Program-made: the position numbers and the translations under genes
The notes under the pieces: model-generated
The model's input: the letters and a program-made list of their open reading frames with translations, nothing else
The model's database searches: none
Told to the model about the DNA's origin: nothing
Part shown: in pieces, positions 13,953 through 26,919 of the stretch
Layout: each line of letters opens with the position of its first letter
Numbering within the stretch: the first letter of the stretch is position 1
Source: Bacteroidales bacterium UBA1184
GTDB taxonomy: Bacteria; Bacteroidota; Bacteroidia; Bacteroidales; ML635J-15
Assembly (NCBI GenBank): GCA_002310235.1
Contig: DBYO01000024.1
Location: 25,246-89,245 of the forward strand
Direction of reading: 5' to 3'
DNA length: 64,000 nucleotides

Positions 13953-15077
13953 TTATTTATACATTCTTTTAATCCACAATTCGAATAGTTTGTCGTAAAC
14001 GTTGTAAACATTTCGGTCCTGTGTGATGAAATCTTTTTCGAGAAGTCCCTTGGCTGCCGACAGAACAGAACTGGGCGACTGTAGCCTATGTTTCTTTACA
14101 AACTCTCCGCCCGATATGTTTTTTGCTTTACCATCCAATGCTATAGAAACAAGGAGGTCACGTTGCTTTTCGGGCATCTGGTACAAAATGGCTTCGTAGG
14201 TGTCTGACGAAAAATCAAGCAACTGCTCTATAGTGCTGTCAATCATATCAATAGTGCAAGTACCATTGGCTGGTGTCTTTACAAAAAGCAGGTTCATTAT
14301 GCGTTGCATATATGAGGTTATGCTGTCGAATTTTTCGTAAAGAGATGATATTACCTGCTTGTCGATGCTTTTGCCTGCTTCTTCGAAATGCTTGACAACG
14401 AACTCAGTGTATTTTTCAAGCGGGATTGGAGGAAGATTCATTATTGTTACTGACTGGAAAAAAGGTCGTGATGGCGATGCGAATATTGCACCCATAAGAT
14501 GTCGTTGCGAGCCAGAAAATATAAAGTGCGTGTTTGTACATTTTTGTATATAGGTGCGCAGTGTCGCTTCTATGTTTTTGTCGTTGTAGCGAGTGATTTG
14601 CTGAAATTCGTCAATTGCAACGAGGCATTTTTTGTCGGCAGATTCAAGATAACTGAAAATTTCGTCGAGCGAGACAGCAGGGTTTTCTATTTCGCCAATC
14701 CCTATGCTCCAGCTTGGATAGCCATTCATGTCGAATCCGATGTTATGCTTGAGAGACGAAACCGCGTTGATGAACTTTTCCCAGCTTTGGCGACCCTTGG
14801 ACTTTAGACCGTCGAGTACTGCCTTGCCCAAAAGGTTCACAAAATCGCGGACTGATGCCGTAGAATAAATGTCAACTATGAAGGTGTGGTACTTGTCACT
14901 TATTTCTGGCTGTGCGAAACAATGGTATATGAGGTCGGTCTTGCCGAGCCTGCGTGGAGAAATAAGTGCAAGGTTGTTCTCGTTTGTGAGCATCTGTACT
15001 ATGTTTTTTGTTTCTTTCTCCCTGTCGCAGAAATATTTAGATCCTGCATATCCGTTGGTTACAAATGGGTTATTCAT
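13953..15077 (-). CDS. Orphan ATP-binding protein (archaeal-type/STAND-like AAA ATPase with C-terminal wHTH-like region)
   Basis: Walker A SPRRLGKTDL and Walker B LVAIDEFQ. Length and layout resemble the multi-copy ATP-binding protein family of Bacteroidales. Confidence 0.7.
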   Translation of the reverse strand: MNNPFVTNGYAGSKYFCDREKETKNIVQMLTNENNLALISPRRLGKTDLIYHCFAQPEISDKYHTFIVDIYSTASVRDFVNLLGKAVLDGLKSKGRQSWEKFINAVSSLKHNIGFDMNGYPSWSIGIGEIENPAVSLDEIFSYLESADKKCLVAIDEFQQITRYNDKNIEATLRTYIQKCTNTHFIFSGSQRHLMGAIFASPSRPFFQSVTIMNLPPIPLEKYTEFVVKHFEEAGKSIDKQVISSLYEKFDSITSYMQRIMNLLFVKTPANGTCTIDMIDSTIEQLLDFSSDTYEAILYQMPEKQRDLLVSIALDGKAKNISGGEFVKKHRLQSPSSVLSAAKGLLEKDFITQDRNVYNVYDKLFELWIKRMYK

Positions 15078-15102
15078 AGTCTAAACATTTTGATTCACAA
15101 TG

Positions 15103-15110
15103 CAAAAGTA
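15103..15110 (-). promoter_or_regulatory. -7 box (TAnnTTTG) upstream of the 374-aa ATPase gene
   Basis: CAAAAGTA on plus equals TACTTTTG on minus, 26 nt before the ATG at 15077. Confidence 0.4.
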
Positions 15111-15128
15111 ATATTTTTTACATTTTCA

Positions 15129-15167
15129 TCATAAAATAATCATCAAAAAATGATGATTATTTTATGA
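15129..15167. repeat. Perfect 17-bp inverted repeat with A5 loop, just upstream of the ATPase -7 box (possible operator or hairpin)
   Basis: TCATAAAATAATCATCA-aaaaa-TGATGATTATTTTATGA. Confidence 0.85.
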
Positions 15168-15232
15168 TTATTACATAATGCATTGATAGACAATTTATTA
15201 CAACCGATTTTTATCTCTATTTATCTTGAAAT

Positions 15233-15339
15233 AACAACAGAGAACCGGCAATGCACCCTTGCAGTCATCGCGGAAGTCATGAGACTCAAGGTGATATGAA
15301 ATGAACCGATGAGAATCAGGCTGTCCGTGATCTCATACC
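15233..15339 (-). repeat. Conserved ~105-nt non-coding element, copy A (candidate structured RNA or MITE-like unit)
   Basis: The 76-nt core 15264-15339 differs at 2 positions from copy B. Conserved blocks on the minus strand: ATGAGATCACGGACAGCC ... CTTCCGCGATGAC. Confidence 0.85.
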
Positions 15340-15615
15340 TACAAAGAGATTTCATTCCGCTCAAGCCGCGGTGGCTTTTACTTTTTATTGGTAAAAAGTA
15401 AACAAAAACCATGTCCGCTGCGTCTGCTTCGCTAAAAATCAGCTGCTCTTCGCTAAAACGCAGGAACTTGTCTCCGTTTCACTCCGCCATCAAACAGCCT
15501 GCCTTTTTACGCTCCGTTTCGCCGATTTTCTTAACGCTCACCAGCCGATGCGGCAACCAAGGTATTGCTACGCAATGGTTTAATAAGTAATTATTGCTCC
15601 GTGAGATTACGTCAG

Positions 15616-15723
15616 AACAAACAGTGAACCGACAGTCCTCCCACACCGTCATCGCGGAAGCCATGAGACTCACGGTGATATGAAATGAACCGATGAGAAT
15701 CAGGCTGTCCGTGATCTCATACC
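15616..15723 (-). repeat. Conserved ~105-nt non-coding element, copy B
   Basis: Core at 15648-15723, 384 nt from copy A and in the same orientation. Confidence 0.85.
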
Positions 15724-15780
15724 AATAATGAGACAAGTAAAGCGTTCTTGCAATGCTCGAACGAAAAAGGTTTTACCACG

Positions 15781-15965
15781 AACCTTTAGCTCGGCGTAGC
15801 CACCCCTAGAAACTCAGAAACGGCGCCAGCCATAGAACGGCGAAGCCCTCAACGAAGTTAAACCCAGAAACGTGCGTAGCACATGAAACGGGCGAAGCCC
15901 ACAGAAACGGCGAAGCCATAGAAACTTAGAAACGGGCTTTAGCCCACGAAACGGGCTTTAGCCCC
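15781..15965. repeat. Degenerate tandem repeats of the GAAACGG(G)CGAAGCC / GAAACGGGCTTTAGCCC type
   Basis: Read directly: ...agaaacggcgccagccatagaacggcgaagccc...gaaacgggcgaagcccacagaaacggcgaagccatagaaacttagaaacgggctttagcccacgaaacgggctttagcccc. Confidence 0.8.
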
Positions 15966-16047
15966 AAAAAATGACACCCCCGAGGCGGGGAACCACGGAG
16001 GCATCACGTTCTATTTATTGTGTGTGTTAAACGAGGTTATGTATTCT

Positions 16048-16137
16048 AAATTTAAAAATTCAAAAATTTAAAAATTCAATGATTTAAAAATTCAATGATT
16101 TAAAAATTCAATGATTTAAAAATTCAAGAATTCAACG
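16048..16137. repeat. 16-nt (2x8) tandem array AAAATTCAATGATTTA immediately 3' of the giant gene
   Basis: At least three perfect ttaaaaattcaatgat units plus degenerate flanking units. Confidence 0.9.
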
Positions 16138-16142
16138 TTCAT

Positions 16143-19100
16143 TTATTGTTTTACGACTTTGCGGTTGATGACAAAGTCATTTGTTGCAACGCGTACCGTA
16201 TAGGTTGCCTCAGGCAAGCCGCCCAAATGCAATACCGTCTGGTAGCTGTTCTGCGGAGCATCGGCATCCTCGGTGTAAACAAGGCGACCAAGCACATCGT
16301 AAACATCGATGCGTGCCGGACGGTTGCTGAAGTTCTCGAGCTCTACCGTGAGTTCTCCGTTGAACGGGTTCGGGTAAGCCACAACCTCGGGTTCGCCAGA
16401 AGCCTCAACGCAGTTGGCAAGAACAATCTCCGATGCGGTGCGAGAGCCGTCGTAGTCGACCTGGACAAGGCGGTAGTAGTTATCGCCGCCACGTACACCG
16501 TAGTCGGTGTAGCTGTAGTCGATAGGCTCGATGCTATTGCCGGCTCCTGCAATACGTGCAACCTCGGTGAAGTTGATTGCATCGTCGGAACGTTCGAGCG
16601 AGAAGTAGTCATTGTTGCGTTCGCTAGCGGTAGTCCACTCAACGAGTGCCGACTTGCCGTTGCAGGTTGCGGTGAACGAAGTAAGCTCGATCGGCAATAC
16701 GGTATTATGGTCGGTTGAACCGAGGGTAATTATACCGTCGAAATTTCCAGCACGGGTGCGCGACAATGTCAGGATTTCACCCACGGTAATTGTTTGGTTC
16801 TCATTATCGAGCGATGCCGTACCTCCGATATTCTTCCAGCAGTCGTAGTGTGCTGCTGCAAAAATCTTATCGGCTTCACGACCTGAATAGTCCTGGTTGA
16901 AGTGTTCAAGCTGATTGCTAGCATCAACCTTGAGGGTTATGCTCGACAAGCTTGTGCTTGCACCAAGATTATCCATATCGACCTGCCAGTATTCGAAATT
17001 GCTTACGTGGTCAAGCTTAGGCAATCCATCGGCTTCGGGACACATATAGTTCTGGTTCCACCAATTTGGATATACATCAAGACCAAAACCAGCCTGACCT
17101 GTACCAGAAGCCCCTTCGTCACGCATGTGGTTGAACTTGACAGAAACGCCAGCATCGGTATTGGTTCCGATAGATGTTGCTATAGTTCCCAGCACACCAT
17201 CGGCACCTGTCGGGAAGGTAAATGCTCCGTTACCCTTCTTGGTTACGGTTCCATCGACATAGCTGTGGTAGCGTGCATTTGCATCGAAGATTGCACTTGA
17301 TCCGTCGTTGAAGAGAGCATTACCAGTAACGACACCATTCTTGAAGGTGGCAGTACCGTTGACGGTTATGCCGTTGGCAGCGGTTATTGTACCTGCTGAC
17401 GACTGGTCGAAGTTTACATTGTAGAATGCAAGCGGACCAGAATTGGTAATAGTCTGCAATGTTCCCTTGAACGCCACAGTACCTGCATTGCTGGTGAAAG
17501 TACCTGTATTGTTAAGGTCTCCGGCAAGGTTCAAAGTACCTGTGCTGCCGTCGAAAGTTCCTGAATTAACGAGGTCTCCTGCTACATCGATAGTACCCGT
17601 AGCTGTAATCGTACCGCTATTGTCGATATCCTGAGCAACCTCGAGATTTTTACCCGATGCAACTGTAACGCTAGCTCCACTACCGACAGTAAGGTTTTGT
17701 GCCTTGCCAGAAGTTTCTACGCTAGCCACCTGCGACATCTGTGCAGGCCAGCCTTTCCATACGCCTGAATTATGATTTCCATCCGAACATTGCGATGTTC
17801 CAATATAAACATTGGAAGATGATGTAGGCAATGTCGTACCACTTGATACCGAATATGTTCCGCTACCACTATTATATATATACCAGTTTGCAGCGGTATT
17901 CCAGTCGGTATTTGCCGCGCCACGCCATATGTAGTCGTAGTCGGTTGGCACATCTTCCGGCACCTTAATATCCACCACCTTGTGGAGAATACCACCGCAT
18001 CCAGCTGCATCGTACATCTCTACTCCAAATACATCGCTTGCCAGTTCCGGAGTTACGATAAGCTGAGTGATTGGATCGTGCGAATAAGGATATGTTGAAC
18101 CATTATGCATCCAACGTATATACTCAAGTGCTACCGGATTATTGCTTGCATCGTGTAGCGTGGCATCAAATTCAGCCTCCTCGCCCAAGCATATAACAGT
18201 CGGATCCAAATCTAGAATTGTAGGCTGTGTAACAGTATATGTGAATCCATTATCTTCGCTCCTACAGCCAAGATCGTCGATAAGCGTAAGGTTACAGCTA
18301 CGCAGCTCTCCAATAGTTACTGGAACTGAAGCAATATTTGCAATTGTAGGATGTATATAGAAGTCGGGACCTCCATTCGAATACACAAGATCATCGGTAG
18401 AAGTACCGCTACCAGGACAAACGCCAAGTTCTGTATTATCAAGACTTACAGTATATTTCCACGAATTGTCCTCAACTCCCTTCAAGGCTATCTCCCAGTT
18501 GAATATATAGCCGTTATCGTTTTCCCATGTGTCACATACCTGTATTTTCCAGTCACCATTAAGCTTGCAACCTACAAGGTTTTCGAAACCTTGCCAGGGC
18601 CTATAGAATCGGGTATGATTATCGACATCTGACTGCTCCACAACCATACTATTGGTGTCTCCTACCCTATGGTTCTGGGCATCCGTTACATATTCGTGAC
18701 CTGCATCATCGCCATAACTGTAATCATTATTGTTTGACCAGCAATAGTCAAATCCCTCTCCGAACGGATTGTACGCAGAATGACCTAAATGCTCATTTGA
18801 TATCCAGTCGTGCAAATTAGGTTTTCCAAACCCTAAAGAAGCCACTTTATGTTTACTCCATTCATAATTACCATAAGTATCACCTGTAGCAAGATTATTT
18901 GTATTATATTGATCTGCACTTTGATACCAGCCTTCGAACACATAATAAAATTCGCCATCACTAAAAGGCGCTGGGGTATTACCAGAATTTCTCATTCCTC
19001 TCAAATGTGCAAGCGCAGCATTATCCGACAATCCATCTTCGAAAGCAGTTGCCTCCTGCCTAACTCCTGTAGCGCTATAAGTACCGTCGACATATCTTAC

Positions 19101-22100
19101 AAATGTTCTCATAGCAACGCTTCCAATCTTATTACCGTCAGATACCCATTCTCCAGGACTTCCAGCATTTCCATATTTTCCATATGTTGCTTTACATTCT
19201 ATTATCTTATAATACCATTCATAAGTATCATCGTCAAGACCAGGAGGAGTAGCAGAAAAAGTATAATAATCCTGCAATATAACCACAGACTTTTCCTGTC
19301 CGGCAGGAGTCTTACAAATAAGCGAAATCTGCATGTCGCCAATATGGGAATGCTCCATATTTATGCGCACGTAGTCGATGTTTGAGGCATCGGTAATAAC
19401 AGTACTCTCCTTGAAGTCGGCAAAGGTAACTCTCGATTCATAACAATCACCAACTCCATCGGGAATGAAAGTTGTTTCGGCATGACCTTTTGTTGATTTA
19501 ATCTCAACCTGGTCGTTGTCGACTTCGATAATAGGCTCGGATACTACAGCAGGGTCACCGACGGTTATTTCCTTTGCCCTACCCACACATATATTTCCAA
19601 TATCCGGAGAATCGTCGTGCGTAACAAGGCCCTTCGACACGAATACGCGCAGAGGAATCTGCTCATGACAACCATTGTTTGCCGTTACAGTAAGCAGTAT
19701 GTCGTGACCTGTTGCATTTTCGACTGTATATGAGATACTGCCAGACGAGGATGTGAGATGGGCATTTCCGTCGTGGCGGTTAACATCCCACGAATAGGTA
19801 ATAGGCCGTGCGTTGGCAGGAATTCCATCCTTCTCTTCTACAGCAAGGGTAATCTCCGAACCCTTGCAAACATTAAATTTCTGAACACCGTTATCTGCCA
19901 CAACATTGCCTTCGTCATCTACCATGGAACCATCATTTGTGCCCTGCAGCGGTGTATTCTTTACTATATTCACATAGTCGCAGATAGTGTATTGCGCATA
20001 CAGGGTAATATCTTCGGTGAGCATTATTGATGCGCCTGGAGCATAAGTAGTTCCCGAGCCGTCCTGGGCTGTATTCCACGACAGGAATATACCGTCGCTA
20101 CACGAAGGTTCATCGCTCGATATTGTAGTTGGATAACCTTCTACACCATGGGTGGGAGGCATGGAGAAGGCTACACCACCAGTACAGTTTGCCGAAGTAT
20201 TGTAGGTGACGGTATGCAAGGTGCCTCCGTATATACAAAACTTGGTATTGGGGCGATAGGTATAATCTGTCATATTTGCAGACACCTCTTCTATATCATC
20301 ATTACTATAGTTATAACTATCGCTATAATATGAAATTACCGAATTAAAGCCTGTAGCAGTATATTTGAACTTATAATCCTGACCATGATATTCAGCAGAA
20401 TGATCATGAATAACGACCAACAGATTCTTAGTGTCGCTGTATACGAAAGGCTCGTCGAGTGTAAACGAGTTCCAGCCATTGGAACAGTTGAGCGGACCTG
20501 AATATACGAGATTGCTCCCAGATATGGCAGTAACCCAATCGCTTCCATCTGAAAATGACTCTTTGTTGGTCTCAACCATATATATATCTACATAATTCTT
20601 TTTGCTCATAGGCGTAGAATATGCATACTGGAATCCGATAGATGTTATTATACCTGCATCTAATCCGACTTCGGTACGCCTATACAGCATCTGCGTGTAT
20701 GAAAAGTTGTAATAATTGTTTAACGGCACCTTAAATGTTTCTGAACCTCCCGTACCTATTTTCGAGCAGTCGTCGGTAACCGTAACAGTAAACTCTGCCG
20801 TGCGGGCACAAAGGTCGGTATTGTCTGGTGTGTACTTTGCAATTATTACGGCACTTCCTTCGGCTACGCCTGTTATTATTCCTGCTGCACTTACAGTAGC
20901 TACATTGTCGTTGGACGAAACATACGACAATGCTCCAGGATATGTGGTTTGGTTGATACCATTGTTTACATATCCGCTTATGTCCAAGGTTGCAGGAGCA
21001 ACAATGCTACCCGATGTTGTTGTAAGCGTAAAAGTTCCAGGAATAGAAGTACACGCATGCTCTATACAGATATTGTCAATAACAACACTATAATACGAAC
21101 TGCTATTATACCACTTGAAGGCCAAGTATGCTCCCGACGGCATTGCTGCTGGAATTGTAAATTCATTCCGTCCTGTATATGAAGAACCACCATAATAATA
21201 TGAAGGAGTAGCAGTACCTATAGAAGTAAACGTAGATGCGTCGTTAGGATTTGTCATATAGCCGAATACCAATGTTCCACTGCTGGCATTTTCCCACCAT
21301 GCATTAAAACTTACCGCATCATTTTCCTGCAAGCCTTCAACATATGGAATTATAACATAGTTGCTATATCCAAAATAATCGTATTCATAATCCCAATCAT
21401 CATAATCATCGCCAGATGTGATGACTATTCCATTGCCATCCATAGCGAATGTTCCATTATATATGTGAGGAGCATAATTGGAATTATAATCTGCAACAGG
21501 TGTATGTCCAGAATTGCTATATAACCTCCTCCAGCAACTTGGCAGTCCTGCATCAATATTTATTTCATCCGTTGGCGATGCAAAACCATCGAAATCGAAG
21601 CAAACTGGAACCGTATATGGATTACACGAAACAGTTACATCGTATGTAACACTTGCTGGGCAGTAGTAAGTTCCTCCTACATGAGCAGCAGGAATATTTG
21701 CTGTAATAGTAGCAGAACCTTCGGTTACACCTGTTATGGCGACACCTGTGTTTGTCCCAGAAACCGTAGCAACCAAAGGATTGCTCGAAGTCCATGTTAC
21801 ATCGGTATTATTAGGATTAGTAAGAACCAAATTTACAGTAGCATCGACGGATACAGAACCCGATGCGGCAGGTAAAGATAATGCTGGTTCCGTACAGGGT
21901 GTACAGTTTGTAGTGTAACCTATATATGTTTGGGTATATCTATAAATTGAAATTGGGCTCTGCGAGGCACTTGCATAACAAGCGAATATTCCGTTTCCAT
22001 TATTATACTGCATCACCTTACGGCTATTTGTTCCTTGTGCCGTTATGGTTGCCGTACCACTTGATATGCTTATCACCCAACTTCCGTTGGCATCATTTAC

Positions 22101-24614
22101 GGCTTGCGTTTTCAATTGATTATTAGAAGAACTCGCAGCATAGATATATCCAGGGTTTGTAGCATCGTAGAACGCCCAAGTTCCACTTGTCGTTCCTGCC
22201 CTAAGGTCGAATTCGCAGACACTTGATGTCCATGTAATAGTAGAACTGCTCTTTGTTATTTCCGCCTTTCCTCTATTATTGGCATTTTGTGTTAGGCTCA
22301 TTGCAAAATCATAATCTTTTGCAGCAATAACTACCTTGTCGCCCACAGCAAGTAACGACGGAGATTCTACACGCGACCATGTCGGGGCAACACCGCTTTC
22401 GTATGCAAACACCGCATAGTAGGTTGTATTTGCCGAAACGTTTCCAGTAGGAGTTCTGAACAGGTCAGCTGGCGGATTGTCGGACGACCAGCTTGAATTT
22501 GCTGTCCAACCGACAAATACACGGTCGTAGCAATTATAACTGGTTGCATCGGTAGCAACTCCCGACGGAACCGTAAGCGCATAACTATTACCTATTGGAT
22601 AGTTCTGTGCAGTAAGATGTCCATCAATCGACCAGGTAACAGTATAGGTGGTGGTTGTACAGGATGTCACATAATTGGTATATGTGGTTGAAGGAATTGC
22701 TGCGGACAATTCAACATTATCAATACGAGCATTTTTACCACTATTACCATTTGAACTTGTATTTTTTAGAGTCAAATTAAAATTAGAAACACCACTTGTT
22801 GCTGTGATTGTCCAACTCTTATTAGAACCAGTTATAGTTATTCCTTGCGTTGTAGATGTTAATGCAAATATATTGTTCTGATTTGATAGGAAAGTCATTG
22901 TCATTTGTGTAGCACCTCCAGTTGGAATATTTGAAATGGTCCATGTATTATTGCCTTTGGAAAGCAACAATTCCGGAGCCGTTCCTCCTGCAATATTGTT
23001 ATTATATAGTTTAGTGTTATTATTACTTTGTGCATATGTAAGCGTTGCGCCACCATAAACGGTAGTACCCTCAAATCCGTATTCACTTGGTTTTTCATTA
23101 TCAGACCCTCCTGTCCATGTTTCGGACCACAGTGTAGTATTTACTGGTGCACCACTCGAAACATTTGCAAACACAGCATAATAAGTTACATCTGCGGCTA
23201 CGGATGCTCCTACAAGGTCACTACGTGAATACAACGGTGAAGGAGCACTATTTTGCGAACCAGATATAGGAGATGTTGTCCAGCCGACAAAAACCTTACC
23301 ACCACATGAAATTGTAGGGTCTGACTGCACCTGCCCATTAGTCAATGTAGATGTAGAAACGGTACTTGTACTACCATCAACAGACCATGTTACGGTATGT
23401 GGAGAAATTGCTCCTGTTACTGTTAATTTGTAATCCTCAACTTCTCCATAATTTGCAGAAATACATGGATCCACCGAATAAGAATACAACTGCTCTACAC
23501 GCATGCGATAGTCACCTGCTGCAGTATTAGCAGGTATAACAAACGAACTAGACCAATTATTTTGATTAATACTATTAGCTGAAGCTACTCGCTCCGTTGA
23601 ATTGTCAAAGACAAAATCCTTGTTCCAGTCAACCCATATTGCATAATTATAAGTATCACTATATCCTCTTCCTACAGAGAAATTTATTGTCGTCCCAGGA
23701 GCAGCCGACACATAATAGTCGTTATAATAATTGGTATAACCTCCAGAACCTTGAGTTGTATTAGTATTGCTAATATTATGTTCGCCACCAGTTGTAGTAA
23801 AAGATTTGATATAATCAGTGGAATAAGCATAACTTGGGGTACAATAGGAACCACCTCCTCCACCACCAGAAGTGGTCTGCGTAACAGTAATGTCATCGAT
23901 ATATAGATAATACATATTTGCAGCATATGTGCAATGAACAACTACTCTTACGCTTTGTCCCTTAAGCGCAGCATCCGTACTTGAGCCCGATACTTGTGCA
24001 TAAGTTTCATTAGTATAGGAAGCTGAACTAATAGCGTTGTATTTTGTTGCAGAAGCAACTGCGGCTGCAGTGGTCACGTCGCTTGCCTTTACGAAGAACA
24101 CTTCAAAAGTCTCTGGATAATAAGAACTTTCGACCCTCTCATACAGACTTACGCTTAGCCTTGTCATATTTGAGGAAACACTAAATGGTTCGGAAACCAA
24201 ATAGCAATTTGCCGCATAAGAAGAACTATATTCATACTTCGCACTATTTGAGACACTATATGCATAACTTGAAGTTGTATTAAGCGTCCAGTTATTGCCA
24301 TTACCAGTTTTGTATGCATACCAACCCGTGGAAGAATAGCTAGTGGAAATGCTACTCATTGCATCAAAGTTCTCAGACAACAGCTGTCCCCACGCTTCTC
24401 CTCCCATCATCATGCACAGGCAGAGAGCCAGAATTGTTAAAACGGATTTAAAATGTAAAAATTTGCTGCGGGAGGCTGCAGAATTAGCATCCAGGCAAAT
24501 TTGCTGTTTTTCAATAAGATTCCCTTTCTCCATAATAATCAATGTATTAGCAGTAGAGACAGCGTCCCTATATATTCCTAAATCGGTTGTCATATTTCCA
24601 CACTTCGTGCCCAT
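16143..24614 (-). CDS. Giant T9SS-sorted cell-surface protein (multi-domain adhesin-like)
   Basis: Single ORF of about 8.4 kb. Signal peptide ...SVLTILALCLCMMMGGEAWGQ and GEVED motif (ANYGEVEDYKL, ~23430-23455). Three Listeria-Bacteroides-type repeats (VFVGWT...YYAVFA), Big_2-like VTWTSSNPLVATVS, and P-domain-like halves (18481-19385). C-terminal T9SS type-A sorting domain (YPNPFNGELTVEL...YDVLGRLVY...TYTVRV). Start is uncertain: the track start 24629 is TTG, and in-frame ATGs lie at 24614, 24593 and 24533. Confidence 0.85.
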   Translation of the reverse strand: MGTKCGNMTTDLGIYRDAVSTANTLIIMEKGNLIEKQQICLDANSAASRSKFLHFKSVLTILALCLCMMMGGEAWGQLLSENFDAMSSISTSYSSTGWYAYKTGNGNNWTLNTTSSYAYSVSNSAKYEYSSSYAANCYLVSEPFSVSSNMTRLSVSLYERVESSYYPETFEVFFVKASDVTTAAAVASATKYNAISSASYTNETYAQVSGSSTDAALKGQSVRVVVHCTYAANMYYLYIDDITVTQTTSGGGGGGSYCTPSYAYSTDYIKSFTTTGGEHNISNTNTTQGSGGYTNYYNDYYVSAAPGTTINFSVGRGYSDTYNYAIWVDWNKDFVFDNSTERVASANSINQNNWSSSFVIPANTAAGDYRMRVEQLYSYSVDPCISANYGEVEDYKLTVTGAISPHTVTWSVDGSTSTVSTSTLTNGQVQSDPTISCGGKVFVGWTTSPISGSQNSAPSPLYSRSDLVGASVAADVTYYAVFANVSSGAPVNTTLWSETWTGGSDNEKPSEYGFEGTTVYGGATLTYAQSNNNTKLYNNNIAGGTAPELLLSKGNNTWTISNIPTGGATQMTMTFLSNQNNIFALTSTTQGITITGSNKSWTITATSGVSNFNLTLKNTSSNGNSGKNARIDNVELSAAIPSTTYTNYVTSCTTTTYTVTWSIDGHLTAQNYPIGNSYALTVPSGVATDATSYNCYDRVFVGWTANSSWSSDNPPADLFRTPTGNVSANTTYYAVFAYESGVAPTWSRVESPSLLAVGDKVVIAAKDYDFAMSLTQNANNRGKAEITKSSSTITWTSSVCEFDLRAGTTSGTWAFYDATNPGYIYAASSSNNQLKTQAVNDANGSWVISISSGTATITAQGTNSRKVMQYNNGNGIFACYASASQSPISIYRYTQTYIGYTTNCTPCTEPALSLPAASGSVSVDATVNLVLTNPNNTDVTWTSSNPLVATVSGTNTGVAITGVTEGSATITANIPAAHVGGTYYCPASVTYDVTVSCNPYTVPVCFDFDGFASPTDEINIDAGLPSCWRRLYSNSGHTPVADYNSNYAPHIYNGTFAMDGNGIVITSGDDYDDWDYEYDYFGYSNYVIIPYVEGLQENDAVSFNAWWENASSGTLVFGYMTNPNDASTFTSIGTATPSYYYGGSSYTGRNEFTIPAAMPSGAYLAFKWYNSSSYYSVVIDNICIEHACTSIPGTFTLTTTSGSIVAPATLDISGYVNNGINQTTYPGALSYVSSNDNVATVSAAGIITGVAEGSAVIIAKYTPDNTDLCARTAEFTVTVTDDCSKIGTGGSETFKVPLNNYYNFSYTQMLYRRTEVGLDAGIITSIGFQYAYSTPMSKKNYVDIYMVETNKESFSDGSDWVTAISGSNLVYSGPLNCSNGWNSFTLDEPFVYSDTKNLLVVIHDHSAEYHGQDYKFKYTATGFNSVISYYSDSYNYSNDDIEEVSANMTDYTYRPNTKFCIYGGTLHTVTYNTSANCTGGVAFSMPPTHGVEGYPTTISSDEPSCSDGIFLSWNTAQDGSGTTYAPGASIMLTEDITLYAQYTICDYVNIVKNTPLQGTNDGSMVDDEGNVVADNGVQKFNVCKGSEITLAVEEKDGIPANARPITYSWDVNRHDGNAHLTSSSGSISYTVENATGHDILLTVTANNGCHEQIPLRVFVSKGLVTHDDSPDIGNICVGRAKEITVGDPAVVSEPIIEVDNDQVEIKSTKGHAETTFIPDGVGDCYESRVTFADFKESTVITDASNIDYVRINMEHSHIGDMQISLICKTPAGQEKSVVILQDYYTFSATPPGLDDDTYEWYYKIIECKATYGKYGNAGSPGEWVSDGNKIGSVAMRTFVRYVDGTYSATGVRQEATAFEDGLSDNAALAHLRGMRNSGNTPAPFSDGEFYYVFEGWYQSADQYNTNNLATGDTYGNYEWSKHKVASLGFGKPNLHDWISNEHLGHSAYNPFGEGFDYCWSNNNDYSYGDDAGHEYVTDAQNHRVGDTNSMVVEQSDVDNHTRFYRPWQGFENLVGCKLNGDWKIQVCDTWENDNGYIFNWEIALKGVEDNSWKYTVSLDNTELGVCPGSGTSTDDLVYSNGGPDFYIHPTIANIASVPVTIGELRSCNLTLIDDLGCRSEDNGFTYTVTQPTILDLDPTVICLGEEAEFDATLHDASNNPVALEYIRWMHNGSTYPYSHDPITQLIVTPELASDVFGVEMYDAAGCGGILHKVVDIKVPEDVPTDYDYIWRGAANTDWNTAANWYIYNSGSGTYSVSSGTTLPTSSSNVYIGTSQCSDGNHNSGVWKGWPAQMSQVASVETSGKAQNLTVGSGASVTVASGKNLEVAQDIDNSGTITATGTIDVAGDLVNSGTFDGSTGTLNLAGDLNNTGTFTSNAGTVAFKGTLQTITNSGPLAFYNVNFDQSSAGTITAANGITVNGTATFKNGVVTGNALFNDGSSAIFDANARYHSYVDGTVTKKGNGAFTFPTGADGVLGTIATSIGTNTDAGVSVKFNHMRDEGASGTGQAGFGLDVYPNWWNQNYMCPEADGLPKLDHVSNFEYWQVDMDNLGASTSLSSITLKVDASNQLEHFNQDYSGREADKIFAAAHYDCWKNIGGTASLDNENQTITVGEILTLSRTRAGNFDGIITLGSTDHNTVLPIELTSFTATCNGKSALVEWTTASERNNDYFSLERSDDAINFTEVARIAGAGNSIEPIDYSYTDYGVRGGDNYYRLVQVDYDGSRTASEIVLANCVEASGEPEVVAYPNPFNGELTVELENFSNRPARIDVYDVLGRLVYTEDADAPQNSYQTVLHLGGLPEATYTVRVATNDFVINRKVVKQ

Positions 24615-24686
24615 AATAGGCGTTAACAAATAGATTAAAAATTAACACAAATAAAACCAACGAGCCTACGTATAATAAACTCGTTG

Positions 24687-24694
24687 CAAAAGTA
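24687..24694 (-). promoter_or_regulatory. -7 box (TAnnTTTG) upstream of the giant adhesin gene
   Basis: CAAAAGTA on plus equals TACTTTTG on minus. It lies upstream of all candidate starts. Confidence 0.35.
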
Positions 24695-24820
24695 TAATGT
24701 ATTTGCATTTTATAGGTAATATTACGCGGTTATTATACATACAAAAATATAAATAATACAACATTAAGTTTTTATTATACGAATAATGAGAAAGGAAAGA
24801 TGAAAGAGTTTTCTGATGGG

Positions 24821-25041
24821 CGAAACGGAAGAACAGGCGGACGGACGGGGCGAAAAGGCTGGAAGGCTAGAAGGCTAAAAGGCTGGAAGGCTAGAAGGCT
24901 GGAAGGCTAGAAGGCTGGAAGGCTAAAAGGCTAAAAGGCTGGAAGGCTAGAAGGCTAGAAGGCTGGAAGGCTAGAAGGCTGGAAGGCGAAAAGGCTAACA
25001 GGCTAACTGGCTAACAGGCGAATAGGCGAAAAGGCTAACAG
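24821..25041. repeat. 8-nt periodic array (AGGCTGGA / AGGCTAGA / AGGCTAAA units, ~25 units)
   Basis: Read directly: ggcgaaaaggctggaaggctagaaggctaaaaggctggaaggctagaaggctggaagg... Confidence 0.9.
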
Positions 25042-25129
25042 CCAAATTCAAACAACTTCAAACCCAAAGGCTACCGCAGCTATCGCTGCTACGTATATGT
25101 GACCCCGCTGGGGTATGTGGCGAGAAAAT

Positions 25130-25223
25130 ACCGCAATGTTTTTTGCCCCCTCGCCCTATGTAGGGGCAGGTTTAAACCTGCCCCTACATGGCGTTAAATT
25201 GGGGCAGGGCAAAAACCTGCGGT
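25130..25223. repeat. Nested hairpin element: perfect 15-bp inverted repeat inside a longer imperfect stem
   Basis: The inner stem ATGTAGGGGCAGGTT-taa-AACCTGCCCCTACAT lies within 25157-25191. The outer arms ACCGCAATGTTTTTTGCCCCCTCGCCC and GGGGCAGGGCAAAAACCTGCGGT are largely complementary. Confidence 0.8.
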
Positions 25224-25224
25224 A

Positions 25225-25310
25225 ATGACCATGAGATCACGGATAGCCGACCGCGACAACGCTCCCCCACCGTATCGCGTGTGCGCTCTGGCTTCCGCGA
25301 TGACGGAGGG
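25225..25310 (+). repeat. Conserved element, diverged copy C (opposite orientation to A/B)
   Basis: ATGAGATCACGGATAGCC (25231-25248) and GGCTTCCGCGATGACGG (25290-25306) match the two conserved blocks of A/B. The interior differs in both sequence and length. Confidence 0.75.
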
Positions 25311-25362
25311 AAAAGAAAAAACAAGTAACATTACTCGCTAGGAAAAACCGATTATTTCAAAA

Positions 25363-25457
25363 AGGCGGACAGGCGAACAGGCGGACGGACGGGGCTAAAA
25401 GGCTGGAAGGCGAAAAGGCTAAAAGGCGAACTGGCGAACAGGCTAACGGGCGACCTA
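25363..25457. repeat. Second 8-nt periodic array (xxxxxGGC units). Repeats the AGGCGGACGGACGGGGC.AAAAGGCTGGAAGGC leader seen at ~24834
   Basis: aggcggacaggcgaacaggcggacggacggggctaaaaggctggaaggcgaaaaggctaaaaggcgaactggcgaacaggctaacgggcgacc. Confidence 0.85.
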
Positions 25458-25483
25458 GATGCGCAATATAACACTGTGCAAAT

Positions 25484-25570
25484 GTTGGAAAAACGGACAA
25501 AATATTTTGTTTTTGTGTTGGAAAAACGGACAAAATAGATTAATTTTGCGTTGGAAAAACAGACAAAATA
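25484..25570 (+). repeat. Three 21-nt direct repeats at exact 33-nt spacing (GTTGGAAAAACGGACAAAATA) ending at the ATPase start codon
   Basis: Units at 25484, 25517 and 25550. The third has one mismatch, and its last A is the A of the ATG. Confidence 0.9.
25541..25548 (+). promoter_or_regulatory. -7 box (TAnnTTTG) for the AAA_14/DUF4143 ATPase gene, between direct repeats 2 and 3
   Basis: TAATTTTG lies 22 nt before ATG 25570. Confidence 0.4.
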
Positions 25571-26919
25571 TGATTAAACGAAAGATAGACAGATACTTAG
25601 CTGACTTTTACTCAAAGAACAAAAAGGCATTGCTTGTTACAGGAGCTAGACAAACAGGAAAATCCTTTTCGATTCGACAGTTCGGAAATACACATTTCGA
25701 CAATTTTGTGGAAATTAACTTTCATGAGCACCCCGAATTTGTTGCCATGCTATCGGAAGCAGAAGGAAGCAACGATATTATATTGAGATTGTCTGCATTT
25801 GCAAGCAAACCTCTGGTTAAGGGCAAGACATTGATCTTTTTTGACGAAGTGCAGGAATTTCCCGAAATTGTTACCGCCATAAAATTCCTTGTCGAAGAAG
25901 GGAGCTACAAGTATGTTCTTAGCGGCTCGCTACTCGGAATCGAACTTAACGATTTGCGTTCGGAACCTGTGGGATATTTGGACATAAAAGAAATGTTTCC
26001 GCTTGATATCGAGGAGTTTTTTACTGCCCTAGGCATAAGCCAAAAGGTGATAGATGCGGTAAGACTGGCATGGGAACAAAAGTCGCCTGTTGATTCGTAC
26101 GTCCACGGAAAACTAATGGAATTATTCAGGCTTTATCTTATTGTAGGTGGCATGCCAGCCGTTGTCCAAAAGTACATCGACACCAACAATCTACAGGAAG
26201 TGCTTGCCGAACAGCAGTCGATAATTAGGCTTTACAAACGCGACATCGCAAAGTACGACCGCAACAACAAGCTATATCTTGAAGAAATATTCGAATTGAT
26301 TCCACCCGAACTCAATGCAATGAACAAGCGTTTTATTCTCAAGAACCTAAACGAAAACATAAAGTTTTCGCGCTTCGAAAATAGTTTTATCTGGCTAAAG
26401 GATGCAGGAGTTGCAATCCCGGCATACAATGTAGAGGAGCCTACTTCACCACTAAAACTATCGCGTTCCCGCAGTTTGTTCAAGCTGTTCCAGAACGACT
26501 TGGGACTGCTTGCTGCGCAATATGCCGACGGCATACAGATTAGGATTTTGTCAAATGCAGCAGATATAAATTTTGGCTCTGTCTACGAAAATGCCGTTGC
26601 TCAGGAATTGCTGGCTCATGGTTTCGACCTATACTATTTCAATAGCAAGAAGCAGGGCGAACTAGACTTTGTTGTCGAACAAAGCGGAAAGATCGTACCA
26701 ATAGAAGTCAAATCGGGGAAAGATTACCGGAGGCACAACGCTTTGTCGAATGTGATGGGCAACAGCAACTATGGCATCGAATGCGCGTATGTGTTCTGCA
26801 ACGACAATGTGAGTCAATCGGGAAATGTTTATTATTTGCCTATTTATATGGTAGCCTTTATGGAGAAGAATGTTCCGGTTGACATTGTATATCGTTTAGA
26901 TTTGTCCGGATTGCAATGA
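25570..26919 (+). CDS. Orphan AAA ATPase (AAA_14 + DUF4143-like)
   Basis: MIKRKIDRYLADFYSKNKKALLVTGARQTGKS (Walker A) and LIFFDEVQ (Walker B). C-terminal ELDFVVE...IPIEVKSG is a restriction-endonuclease-like motif typical of DUF4143. The 37 codons upstream (from 25459) are translated direct repeats, so the start is placed at 25570. Confidence 0.8.
   Translation: MIKRKIDRYLADFYSKNKKALLVTGARQTGKSFSIRQFGNTHFDNFVEINFHEHPEFVAMLSEAEGSNDIILRLSAFASKPLVKGKTLIFFDEVQEFPEIVTAIKFLVEEGSYKYVLSGSLLGIELNDLRSEPVGYLDIKEMFPLDIEEFFTALGISQKVIDAVRLAWEQKSPVDSYVHGKLMELFRLYLIVGGMPAVVQKYIDTNNLQEVLAEQQSIIRLYKRDIAKYDRNNKLYLEEIFELIPPELNAMNKRFILKNLNENIKFSRFENSFIWLKDAGVAIPAYNVEEPTSPLKLSRSRSLFKLFQNDLGLLAAQYADGIQIRILSNAADINFGSVYENAVAQELLAHGFDLYYFNSKKQGELDFVVEQSGKIVPIEVKSGKDYRRHNALSNVMGNSNYGIECAYVFCNDNVSQSGNVYYLPIYMVAFMEKNVPVDIVYRLDLSGLQ

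Follow-up and report, generated by a model that had tools for sequence, protein, structure and literature searches.

What are the three copies of a conserved non-coding element that surround a giant surface-protein gene in a rumen bacterium, and do they have to do with the ATPase genes beside which they lie? The window analysed here is a stretch of 64,000 nt from Bacteroidales bacterium UBA1184 (contig DBYO01000024.1, positions 25,246 to 89,245; coordinates given without a contig are those of the window). It holds an adhesin-like gene of 2828 amino acids, with copies B and A of the element on one side, copy C on the other, and an ATPase gene beyond them at either end. An earlier note had taken the copies for a structured RNA pointing at the two ATPase genes. 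We consider it likely that the three copies belong, as diverged orphans, to a dispersed family of long DNA hairpins, built on the frame of the CGTC-type repetitive extragenic palindromes (CGTC-REPs) and of the Ssn-related motifs (SRM; NTS in Neisseria). The family is a long-hairpin variant of this known kind, and three cassettes link it to an Ssn-like nuclease. Its units in the window are:

15261 to 15339 (model orientation), minus strand: copy A, hairpin unit of about 75 nt; R1 58.4 bits; fold of -26.0 kcal/mol on the plus strand (z -2.8)
15645 to 15723, minus strand: copy B, hairpin unit; R1 66.2 bits; fold of -31.4 kcal/mol on the plus strand (z -4.8)
25228 to 25307, plus strand: copy C, hairpin unit; R1 70.7 bits; fold of -35.3 kcal/mol on the minus strand

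Repeat search, alignment and covariance model agree that these are three homologous non-coding copies at the places where they had been reported. A and B form a direct pair of 114 nt with 88% identity in the repeat search of the window, and the alignment upheld the description of their cores (about 72 nt) as differing at 2 positions. C shares with them two blocks of 18 nt in inverted orientation. The family covariance model matched exactly A, B and C in the window and nothing further; all three belonged to the seed of that model, and the independent evidence is an iterative nhmmer search, which ties them to 49 more copies in the same genome. The earlier note was right that C has the two conserved blocks. 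They are, however, the two arms of the basal stem of a single hairpin and no separate motifs: ATCACGGA-C/T-AGCC pairs with GGCT-TCCGCGAT, and in the pairing of GAGATCACGGA(C/T)AGCC with GGCTTCCGCGATGAC one base is bulged. Each copy is a single hairpin of about 75 nt, and what had been called the different interior of C is a different upper stem, in which the alignment places the canonical apical part of the family, ACAACGCTCCCC..CCGTATCGCGTG. The helices suggested earlier (CACCGU/ACGGUG and similar) are not kept in other members of the subfamily. Conservation had rightly been placed at the nucleotide and not the protein level, as no frame stays open in more than 98 of 145 copies from related metagenome-assembled genomes (MAGs), with unit lengths of 75, 80 or 81 nt. 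A protein-coding reading of the element was rejected, no frame being conserved across these 145 copies.

Regarding orientation, copy A, a singleton of the TCACGG/GCGAT subfamily, carries its (A)GTCAT head on the plus strand, B has a CGTCAT head at 15645 on the plus strand and C one at 25307 on the minus strand. All three heads, at the low-coordinate ends of B and A and at the high-coordinate end of C, face away from the giant gene. On the CGTC strand B, A and C fold with z scores of -4.8, -2.8 and -2.4, against -2.6, -0.3 and -1.5 on the strand favoured by the earlier note, and this better folding on the CGTC strand agrees with the directional recognition reported for NTS.

The window's own genome (G000) is a rumen Bacteroidales assembly of 2.8 Mb in 53 contigs and 90.9% complete. 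BLAST of copy B against it gave partial matches on many contigs, and the family was found to comprise 52 copies by iterative nhmmer and 53 by covariance model. All 53 are intergenic, located between long open reading frames (ORFs) and often 5-40 nt off a gene end. The canonical unit reads AGGAGA-TTCCGCA-TAG-(two further stem tiers and a loop with CGTTCCKTA)-TGCGGAA-TGAC, and on the other strand (C)GTC-AT-stem...stem-AT-CTCC. Read on this head strand it consists of an unpaired (C)GTC tag, an AT-initiated basal stem, two more covarying tiers, an apical loop and an unpaired CTCC-like tail. GTC is preceded by C in 53 of 132 copies, by T in 38 and by A in 35. The basal stem is ATTCCGCA/TGCGGAAT in the main family and ATCGCGGA/TCCGTGAT in the window copies. 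The subfamily of A, B and C is divergent and made up mostly of singletons, with a basal stem TCRCGG and a 3' extension GGGAGGACTGTCGG....

The earlier note had proposed to look for further copies in the genome and for covariation among them, and both were found. Among 42 copies of the own genome, RNAalifold shows 13 of 19 pairs changed on both sides. In the set of 145 copies from related MAGs 97.6% of cells pair, compared to 78.2% in shuffled and 35-42% in slid controls, and double changes occur in 14 of the 19 pairs; the pairs 9-76, 10-75 and 16-69 are nearly invariant A-U/U-A. Whole stems change compensatorily between subfamilies (ATTCCGCA/TGCGGAAT, ATTTCGGA/TCCGAAAT, ATCGCGGA/TCCGCGAT). The proposal of a structured RNA survives in part: there is one conserved, structure-forming, non-coding element, while its reading as a strand-specific regulatory RNA is not supported. 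Searches of Rfam fit no curated family to it, with no match in the window at gathering scores, noise only for the A/B/C region at E values up to 10, and nothing but tRNAs and noise for 18 canonical family loci.

In G000 40 of the 53 copies are arranged in 20 doublets, 18 of which have their heads outward (GTCATTCCGC...GCGGAATCTCC-(short spacer)-GGAGATTCCGC...GCGGAATGAC) and 18 of which are heterodimers of a short-loop and a long-loop unit. The short-loop unit has about 69 nt and the long-loop unit about 75 nt; as aligned, with three flank bases per side, units measure 75-81 nt. Doublets are pseudo-palindromic, and the order of their units shows no preference in regard to the direction of flanking genes. 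In related MAGs doublets make up 96 of 119 clusters. Among 24 congeners sampled, 8 hold from 22 to more than 110 copies, the counts being lower bounds at the top end, and the other 16 hold none; in 16 other families of the order no copies were found, save one marginal match. The nine family-positive genomes (eight congeners and G000) also carry element X, a second dispersed repeat which lies between B and A in the window, and this suggests that they form one subclade. A pattern scan of the genomes of 185,579 species located the family termini in rumen Bacteroidales MAGs of cattle, buffalo, yak and deer, and also in MAGs of marine Flavobacteriales (Salibacteraceae), there with unrelated interiors. 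Near the long forms the marine Salibacteraceae have short forms of 26-30 nt such as CGTCATTCCCGTGAAGGCGGGAATCT; short forms in G000 are restricted to 7-8 copies of another stem type.

In its full form the element is a doublet with a central single-domain GIY-YIG (Ssn-like) gene of about 115 amino acids. On contig C68 of the related genome G019 (locus L309) a GIY-YIG gene of 117 amino acids (L309:1412-1765, minus strand) occupies exactly the gap between the two units of a doublet, one short-loop (79.5 bits) and one long-loop (86.9 bits). Its 75%-identical counterpart on a rumen metagenome contig (L253) is enclosed by units of 85.5 and 75.0 bits, and the MAG RUG12182 (L181) has a frameshifted copy between units of 64.1 and 88.9 bits, inserted at the same site as in G019, after a GTPase-like gene of 356 amino acids. 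In L309 and L253, the two cassettes compared for unit length, the long-loop unit is on the side of the gene start. Where the cassette sits behind the GTPase-like gene, about the last 14-20 nt of that gene recur beyond the cassette in diverged form. Both cassette sites are empty in G000, where the flanks abut within 3 and 12 nt. In the marine MAG G041 long and short hairpin forms flank each of the 3 small GIY-YIG genes (about 100 amino acids) that were examined out of 5, and the encoded proteins are 43-44% identical to that of G019. Homologues are proteins of about 100 amino acids named 'GIY-YIG nuclease family protein' and occur across phyla.

The window's own genome yielded no such gene. The sole GIY-YIG match of a Pfam scan of G000 is an ORF of 597 amino acids, which has the size of UvrC, and tblastn of G000 with three Ssn-like proteins gave noise only (best E = 0.07). 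No small GIY-YIG gene was found either in G021, which is 100% complete and holds more than 105 units. With no such gene found in G000, its 53 copies look orphaned. As a separate observation, G010 and G011 have a second Ssn-like gene (L302, G011:C32:19100-21500) in an array of alternating TGTCATGCTGAATTTATTTCAGCATCTG and GTCATCCTGAACTTGTTTCAGGATCT short hairpins, whose starts are about 67 nt apart so that each type recurs every 133 nt or so. G000 keeps 7-8 short hairpins of this kind and not the gene.

Comparison of orthologous sites shows that the repeats are polymorphic in presence. At the site of the doublet on contig C32 of G000, 5 species carry the insert and 4 lack it, and a 9-bp direct repeat ATTCTAAAC is seen where it is present. 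The doublet on C5 is private to G000, where it replaces about 55 nt present in six relatives. Conversely, G000 has empty sites at about 20 loci where related MAGs carry an insert; these inserts measure 180-390 nt and often show AT-rich duplications of 2-8 bp, duplications of 2-9 nt being seen at many, not all, sites. A larger element, bounded by terminal inverted repeats CTATATACAAGTTGAC...GTCAACATGTATATAG and by 8-bp target duplications rich in A and T, encloses one doublet subfamily (L161, L171 and L126 in related MAGs; G000:C32:66666-66824, C16:21019-21177 and C14:5984-6110). This case is best read as a hairpin doublet carried as cargo by a different miniature inverted-repeat transposable element (MITE). 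Genes between neighbouring doublets in related MAGs were considered as transposases and dismissed, as they turned out to be ordinary membrane-protein genes.

What such hairpins may do can be judged from two published systems. CGTC-REPs comprise a tag, an AT-initiated stem of 8-9 bp and a short tail, are mostly dimers, and have no associated transposase; the dRS3 repeat of Neisseria was equated with CGTC-1 (Di Nocera et al. 2013, BMC Genomics 14:522, PMC3733652). NTS (CGTCATTCCCGCGMAVGCGGGAATCYRG) is a subset of dRS3; SsnA, a GIY-YIG nuclease of about 100 amino acids, binds and cuts it in single-stranded DNA, and does so on just one of the two strands (Chenal et al. 2025, Nat Commun 16:2388, PMC11893778). 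According to the same study, ssn genes across phyla are usually flanked by SRMs, NTS are clustered at genes for surface proteins, and DNA with a gene between two NTS transforms less well (PMC11893778). By analogy with Neisseria SsnA, the nuclease of the rumen cassettes would bind the hairpin on one strand of single-stranded DNA and would cut beside the tag (PMC11893778). Gene-less doublets and singletons would, by the same analogy, be non-autonomous or decayed derivatives. The 53 copies of the 90.9%-complete assembly, A, B and C included, are probably inert relics. If they have present effects, secondary candidates are the recombination or uptake of hairpin-gene-hairpin DNA, the stability of mRNA 3' ends and the pausing of replication. 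A more far-reaching version is possible but doubtful: the cassette would be the autonomous parent, whose GIY-YIG nuclease mobilises or copies doublets in a REPIN-like manner, the long hairpins would be a lineage-specific extension of the recognition site, and the pair flanking the adhesin gene would act like NTS-gene-NTS, marking surface genes for restricted or biased recombination.

Several observations weigh against placing A, B and C in an Ssn-linked family. At 90.9% completeness, the nuclease gene of G000 could sit in unassembled DNA, and the cognate gene was found in only one (G019, itself 74% complete) of nine family-holding relatives. G010 and G011 carry a different Ssn-like gene, 54-59% identical, amid arrays of short TGTCATGCTGAA...TTCAGCATCTG hairpins. 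For the A/B/C subfamily, which diverges from the cassette-bearing units, no cassette was found. Ssn nucleases belong to CDD cd10448 (GIY-YIG_unchar_3); the rumen GIY-YIG proteins, candidate members of it, match the Pfam family GIY-YIG and no NCBIfam entry, and their nearest PDB chains are UPF0213 proteins at a weak E of about 1e-4. In many inserts 10-125 extra nt lie beyond the hairpins, together with short direct duplications, and insert ends vary; neither the extra nucleotides nor the duplications are explained by hairpin-directed cutting. Family-wide, G-U exceeds A-C on the strand opposite to CGTC (83 versus 25, mostly from two columns). The interior is also too long: the family has 69-75 nt and a three-tier stem between tag and tail, compared to 20-50 nt with a loop of N(0-5) in SRM, and in place of the 4-5-nt loop and total size of 20-40 bp of CGTC-REPs its interior of about 55 nt forms two more helices. 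Finally, one stem position is A(-T) where the published SRM pattern requires G.

The outward heads of the window copies around the giant gene reproduce the polarity of unit-gene-unit seen in the Ssn cassette. The C-terminal part of the 2828-aa protein has paralogues at four other places in G000 (C13, C26, C32 and C34), and two of these paralogues, on C32 and C34, form the C-terminal ends of other giant genes with a hairpin unit at 1 kb or less from one end. The giant genes besides that of the window with a unit this close are these two (C32:46298-55354 and C34:7916-13219), C49:5564-9187 and two on C38. In total 51 ORFs of at least 1200 amino acids were counted in G000, 6 of them with a hairpin unit at 1 kb or less; these units are mostly singletons and several belong to the A/B/C subfamily, whose presence near giant ORFs is far above chance. 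Co-duplication of gene and flank is as likely an explanation of this proximity as targeted insertion. The proximity also suggests a possible parallel with the NTS clusters at surface-protein genes of Neisseria, and the copies are probably part of a repeat mosaic that fills the intergenic DNA around giant surface-protein genes.

How do other explanations fare against these data? That the units are a structured cis-regulatory RNA or small RNA, transcribed toward STAND/AAA ATPase genes and controlling them, is highly improbable. The strong covariation does indicate selection for pairing, every window copy is in sense orientation upstream of an ATPase gene (A and B of the ATPase_2 gene, C of the DUF4143 gene), and G-U exceeds A-C on that strand throughout the family. 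Yet G000 has about 30 AAA_14/ATPase_2-type genes and 53 copies of the element, and of about 30 family loci just two, both in the window, adjoin such a gene, so the association claimed by the earlier note does not stand. The syntenic locus of G008 lacks the ATPase_2 gene and keeps the hairpins and element X, and the same frame flanks nuclease genes elsewhere. Nor is a strand-specific RNA pointing at the genes supported, as the pseudo-palindromic doublets have no orientation bias relative to transcription, the window copies fold worse on the proposed strand, and Rfam has no family for them. A plain repeat with no ATPase association, the outcome which had been named as contrary to the RNA reading, describes the result by half: the association is absent, but the repeat is not plain, being structured and part of a hairpin-repeat system that is known. 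Even less credible is the idea that A/B and C are recombination sites which invert the 9.5-kb adhesin segment as a phase-variation switch. An inverted pair does enclose the giant gene, but its shared identity is limited to two blocks of 18 nt, neither ORF list nor Pfam shows a recombinase gene nearby, most family members are adjacent doublets that enclose nothing, and G008 has the same order and orientation, so an inversion between 15.7 and 25.2 kb finds no support in this collinearity.

Two further explanations concern the way the repeats spread. We regard it as unlikely that the units (GTCATTCCGCA hairpins) are ordinary MITEs of a DDE transposase, with the likeness to SRM and the enclosed nuclease genes being incidental. 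Doublets have inverted termini, filled and empty sites often differ by inserts with AT-rich duplications of 2-9 bp (ATTCTAAAC, AAATAAT, AAAATAAT), and one subfamily lies within the element bounded by CTATATACAAGTTGAC / GTCAACATGTATATAG and an 8-bp duplication. However, that element is best read as a different MITE with a doublet on board, and the sequences added beyond the hairpins differ from copy to copy, which leaves no common transposon end. The stems covary rather than keep one transposase-binding sequence, and the same termini with unrelated interiors recur beside small GIY-YIG genes in another order of Bacteroidota. Mobilisation of the units as REPINs by a REP-associated tyrosine transposase (RAYT) encoded in the genome is very unlikely. 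G000 does have five RAYT-like genes and one IS200-like gene, the doublets are REPIN-like in architecture, and orthologues of the C34 RAYT with at least 70% identity occur only in family-holding genomes; as the shared element X makes these nine genomes probably one subclade, this co-occurrence carries little weight. No unit was found at any of 11 Y1-transposase loci, and the tag is CGTC, not GTAG. GTAG-type palindromes are the usual substrate of RAYTs, and G000 has separate ones, with one inside each of two RAYT genes. Three marine MAGs with 2-32 units each have no homologue of the C34 RAYT; regarding Y1 matches, the MAG with 32 units has none, one MAG has a sub-threshold match with stop codons and one a match above the Pfam cut-off. 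Moreover, CGTC REPs were reported without RAYT association (PMC3733652). We thus retain diverged members of the Ssn-linked hairpin family as the likely identity of A, B and C.

The remaining features around the window copies are:

15604 to 15644, minus strand: 3' extension module of the A/B/C subfamily (GGTGTGGGAGGACTGTCGGTTCACTGTTTGTTCTGAC), common to other loci
15345 to 15600, minus strand: element X, a dispersed structured repeat of about 200-250 nt, between B and A
25127 to 25222, no strand assigned: long imperfect palindrome before copy C, with a perfect inverted repeat of 16+16 nt; module kept in G008
16143 to 24629, minus strand: adhesin-like gene, 2828 amino acids (ORF list), B and A on one side, C on the other
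13953 to 15077, minus strand: ATPase_2/AAA_14 gene (Pfam), a neighbour outside the element
25571 to 26919, plus strand: AAA_14 + DUF4143 ATPase gene (Pfam), a neighbour outside the element

The ORF list and Pfam confirm the gene layout given by the earlier note, with a minus-strand ATPase gene, A/B, the giant gene on the minus strand, C and a plus-strand ATPase gene. The extension module has a weaker copy after A (15225-15260) and is also present at C49:4729-4911, C3:63380-63537, C32:55893-56049, C34:7359-7515 and in G008. The DUF4143 ATPase gene is 97% identical and syntenic in G008, and its start is likely the ATG at 25571, compared to the listed ORF start at 25459. Three direct repeats of 33 nt (TGTTGGAAAAACGGACAAAATA...) at 25483-25581 reach into this gene and overlap the longer ORF. 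The ATPase_2/AAA_14 gene behaves as a variable or mobile gene. Its homologues in G010, G011 and G019 are 81-91% identical and are not found at the site of the homologue of the neighbouring ABC gene. About 50 nt upstream of its start codon, at 15128-15168, a perfect palindrome of 18+18 nt made up of A and T only (ATCATAAAATAATCATCA / TGATGATTATTTTATGAT) may be an operator or a bidirectional terminator.

Element X is present in 3-22 copies per genome in the nine family-positive genomes, and 63 matches were found in rumen metagenome contigs; the viral contigs searched gave none. Its Alifold energy is -47.0 kcal/mol compared to -36.2 kcal/mol on the other strand, with 50 G-U against 4 A-C, and it has a nested minus-strand fold with a long-range helix AAAATCGG/CCGATTTT that shows compensatory changes. 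There was no Rfam match to it, and its neighbouring genes are diverse, with none constant. Hairpin units bracket it in G000 and G008, while elsewhere it stands alone. The tip of the long palindrome before C is a GTAG-type REP palindrome (GTAGGGGCAGGTTTAAACCTGCCCCTAC, 25160-25187). Only six GTAG palindromes were found in G000, two of them in frame within two closely related RAYT genes (G000:C34:42113 and C43:39024; L047 1723-1759), where they are kept in G002 and G021. A match of 14 nt to the unit, located directly behind the C43 RAYT gene, was put down to chance.

Arrays with a period of 8 nt (GGCTNRAA, ATTYAAWR) and runs of mini-hairpins (GAAACGGGCGAAGCCC) occupy 15800-15970, 16034-16143, 24817-25060 and 25359-25452. 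A short repeat AACCTTTAGCTCGGCGTAGCCA and its complement occur at 15755-15810, often beside or inside doublets, at the flanks of units (G000:C48:5727-5985 and C30:12165-12423, for example) and at the 5' end of some copies of X. Taken together, arrays, hairpins, element X and the GTAG palindrome are a mosaic on both flanks of the giant gene that resembles BIME and NIME elements.

Since 2013 it has been open which agent spreads CGTC-type REPs (PMC3733652). The study of Ssn demonstrated a small nuclease that recognises such hairpins, but did not settle how they spread or what they do outside Neisseria (PMC11893778). The rumen Bacteroidales clade is a natural comparison set for both, with species that carry hundreds of long-form doublets, one intact nuclease gene within a doublet, one frameshifted at the same site, several genomes with none, and clean empty sites for both cassette locations. 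It makes nuclease-driven expansion of the repeats testable, as well as the fate of repeats after loss of the nuclease. In annotation, A, B and C and the spurious ORFs over them should be entered as repeat units and not as regulators of ATPase genes.

Among known repeat systems, structured MITEs such as the Correia or NEMIS elements of Neisseria are intergenic foldback inserts of about 150 nt with presence/absence polymorphism and short target duplications at some sites. The present family appears to differ from them in having neither a fixed DDE-bound terminal repeat nor a constant duplication length, and its stems covary. The REP/BIME and REPIN-RAYT systems are characterised by dispersed palindromes, inverted doublets, mosaic intergenic clusters and a gene-carrying full form flanked by units. 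All these features are common to the rumen family, but its tag is CGTC instead of GTAG and the enclosed gene encodes a GIY-YIG nuclease instead of a Y1 HUH transposase. With the CGTC-REPs (CGTC-1 to CGTC-4, among them dRS3, and RPE-4/-6 of Rickettsia; PMC3733652) the family shares tag, stem and tail, with a basal stem ATTCCGCA/TGCGGAAT of 8 bp, as well as the extragenic location in inverted dimers (20 doublets in G000, 96 of 119 clusters in MAGs). Frequent heterodimers, the lack of a flanking transposase and the presence of GTAG REPs alongside are likewise common to both, whereas the tail is CTCC and not CCA.

The closest likeness is to NTS and the SRMs, from which the family differs in its conserved apical loop and in its obligate heterodimers of a short-loop and a long-loop unit. 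Its hosts also differ from Neisseria in being rumen Bacteroidota, and in most of the repeat-holding genomes, G000 included, no nuclease gene was found. The SRM tail RNCYNB (AATCYRG in NTS) fits the canonical end GGAATCTCC, while in the window copies, ending in GTGATCTCAT, the last position misfits the final B of the pattern. The SRM head HGTCWY with its stem is found in the canonical unit (CGTCATTCCGCA), in B and C (CGTCATCGCGGA) and in A (AGTCATCGCGGA), and 126 of 132 copies have C, T or A ahead of GTC. The family termini GTCATTCCGC...GCGGAATCTCC match the published NTS CGTCATTCCCGCG..CGCGGGAATCYRG (PMC11893778), agreeing almost letter for letter in CGTCATTCC...GGAATCY, with a CGTC/TGTC tag, an AT-initiated stem and an ATCT-type tail. 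Units flank a small GIY-YIG gene in L309, L253, L181 and G041; in G000 no such gene was found. As in the NTS/SRM system, a small single-domain GIY-YIG gene lies between two inverted motifs, and there are hundreds of intergenic copies, with clusters next to surface-protein genes.

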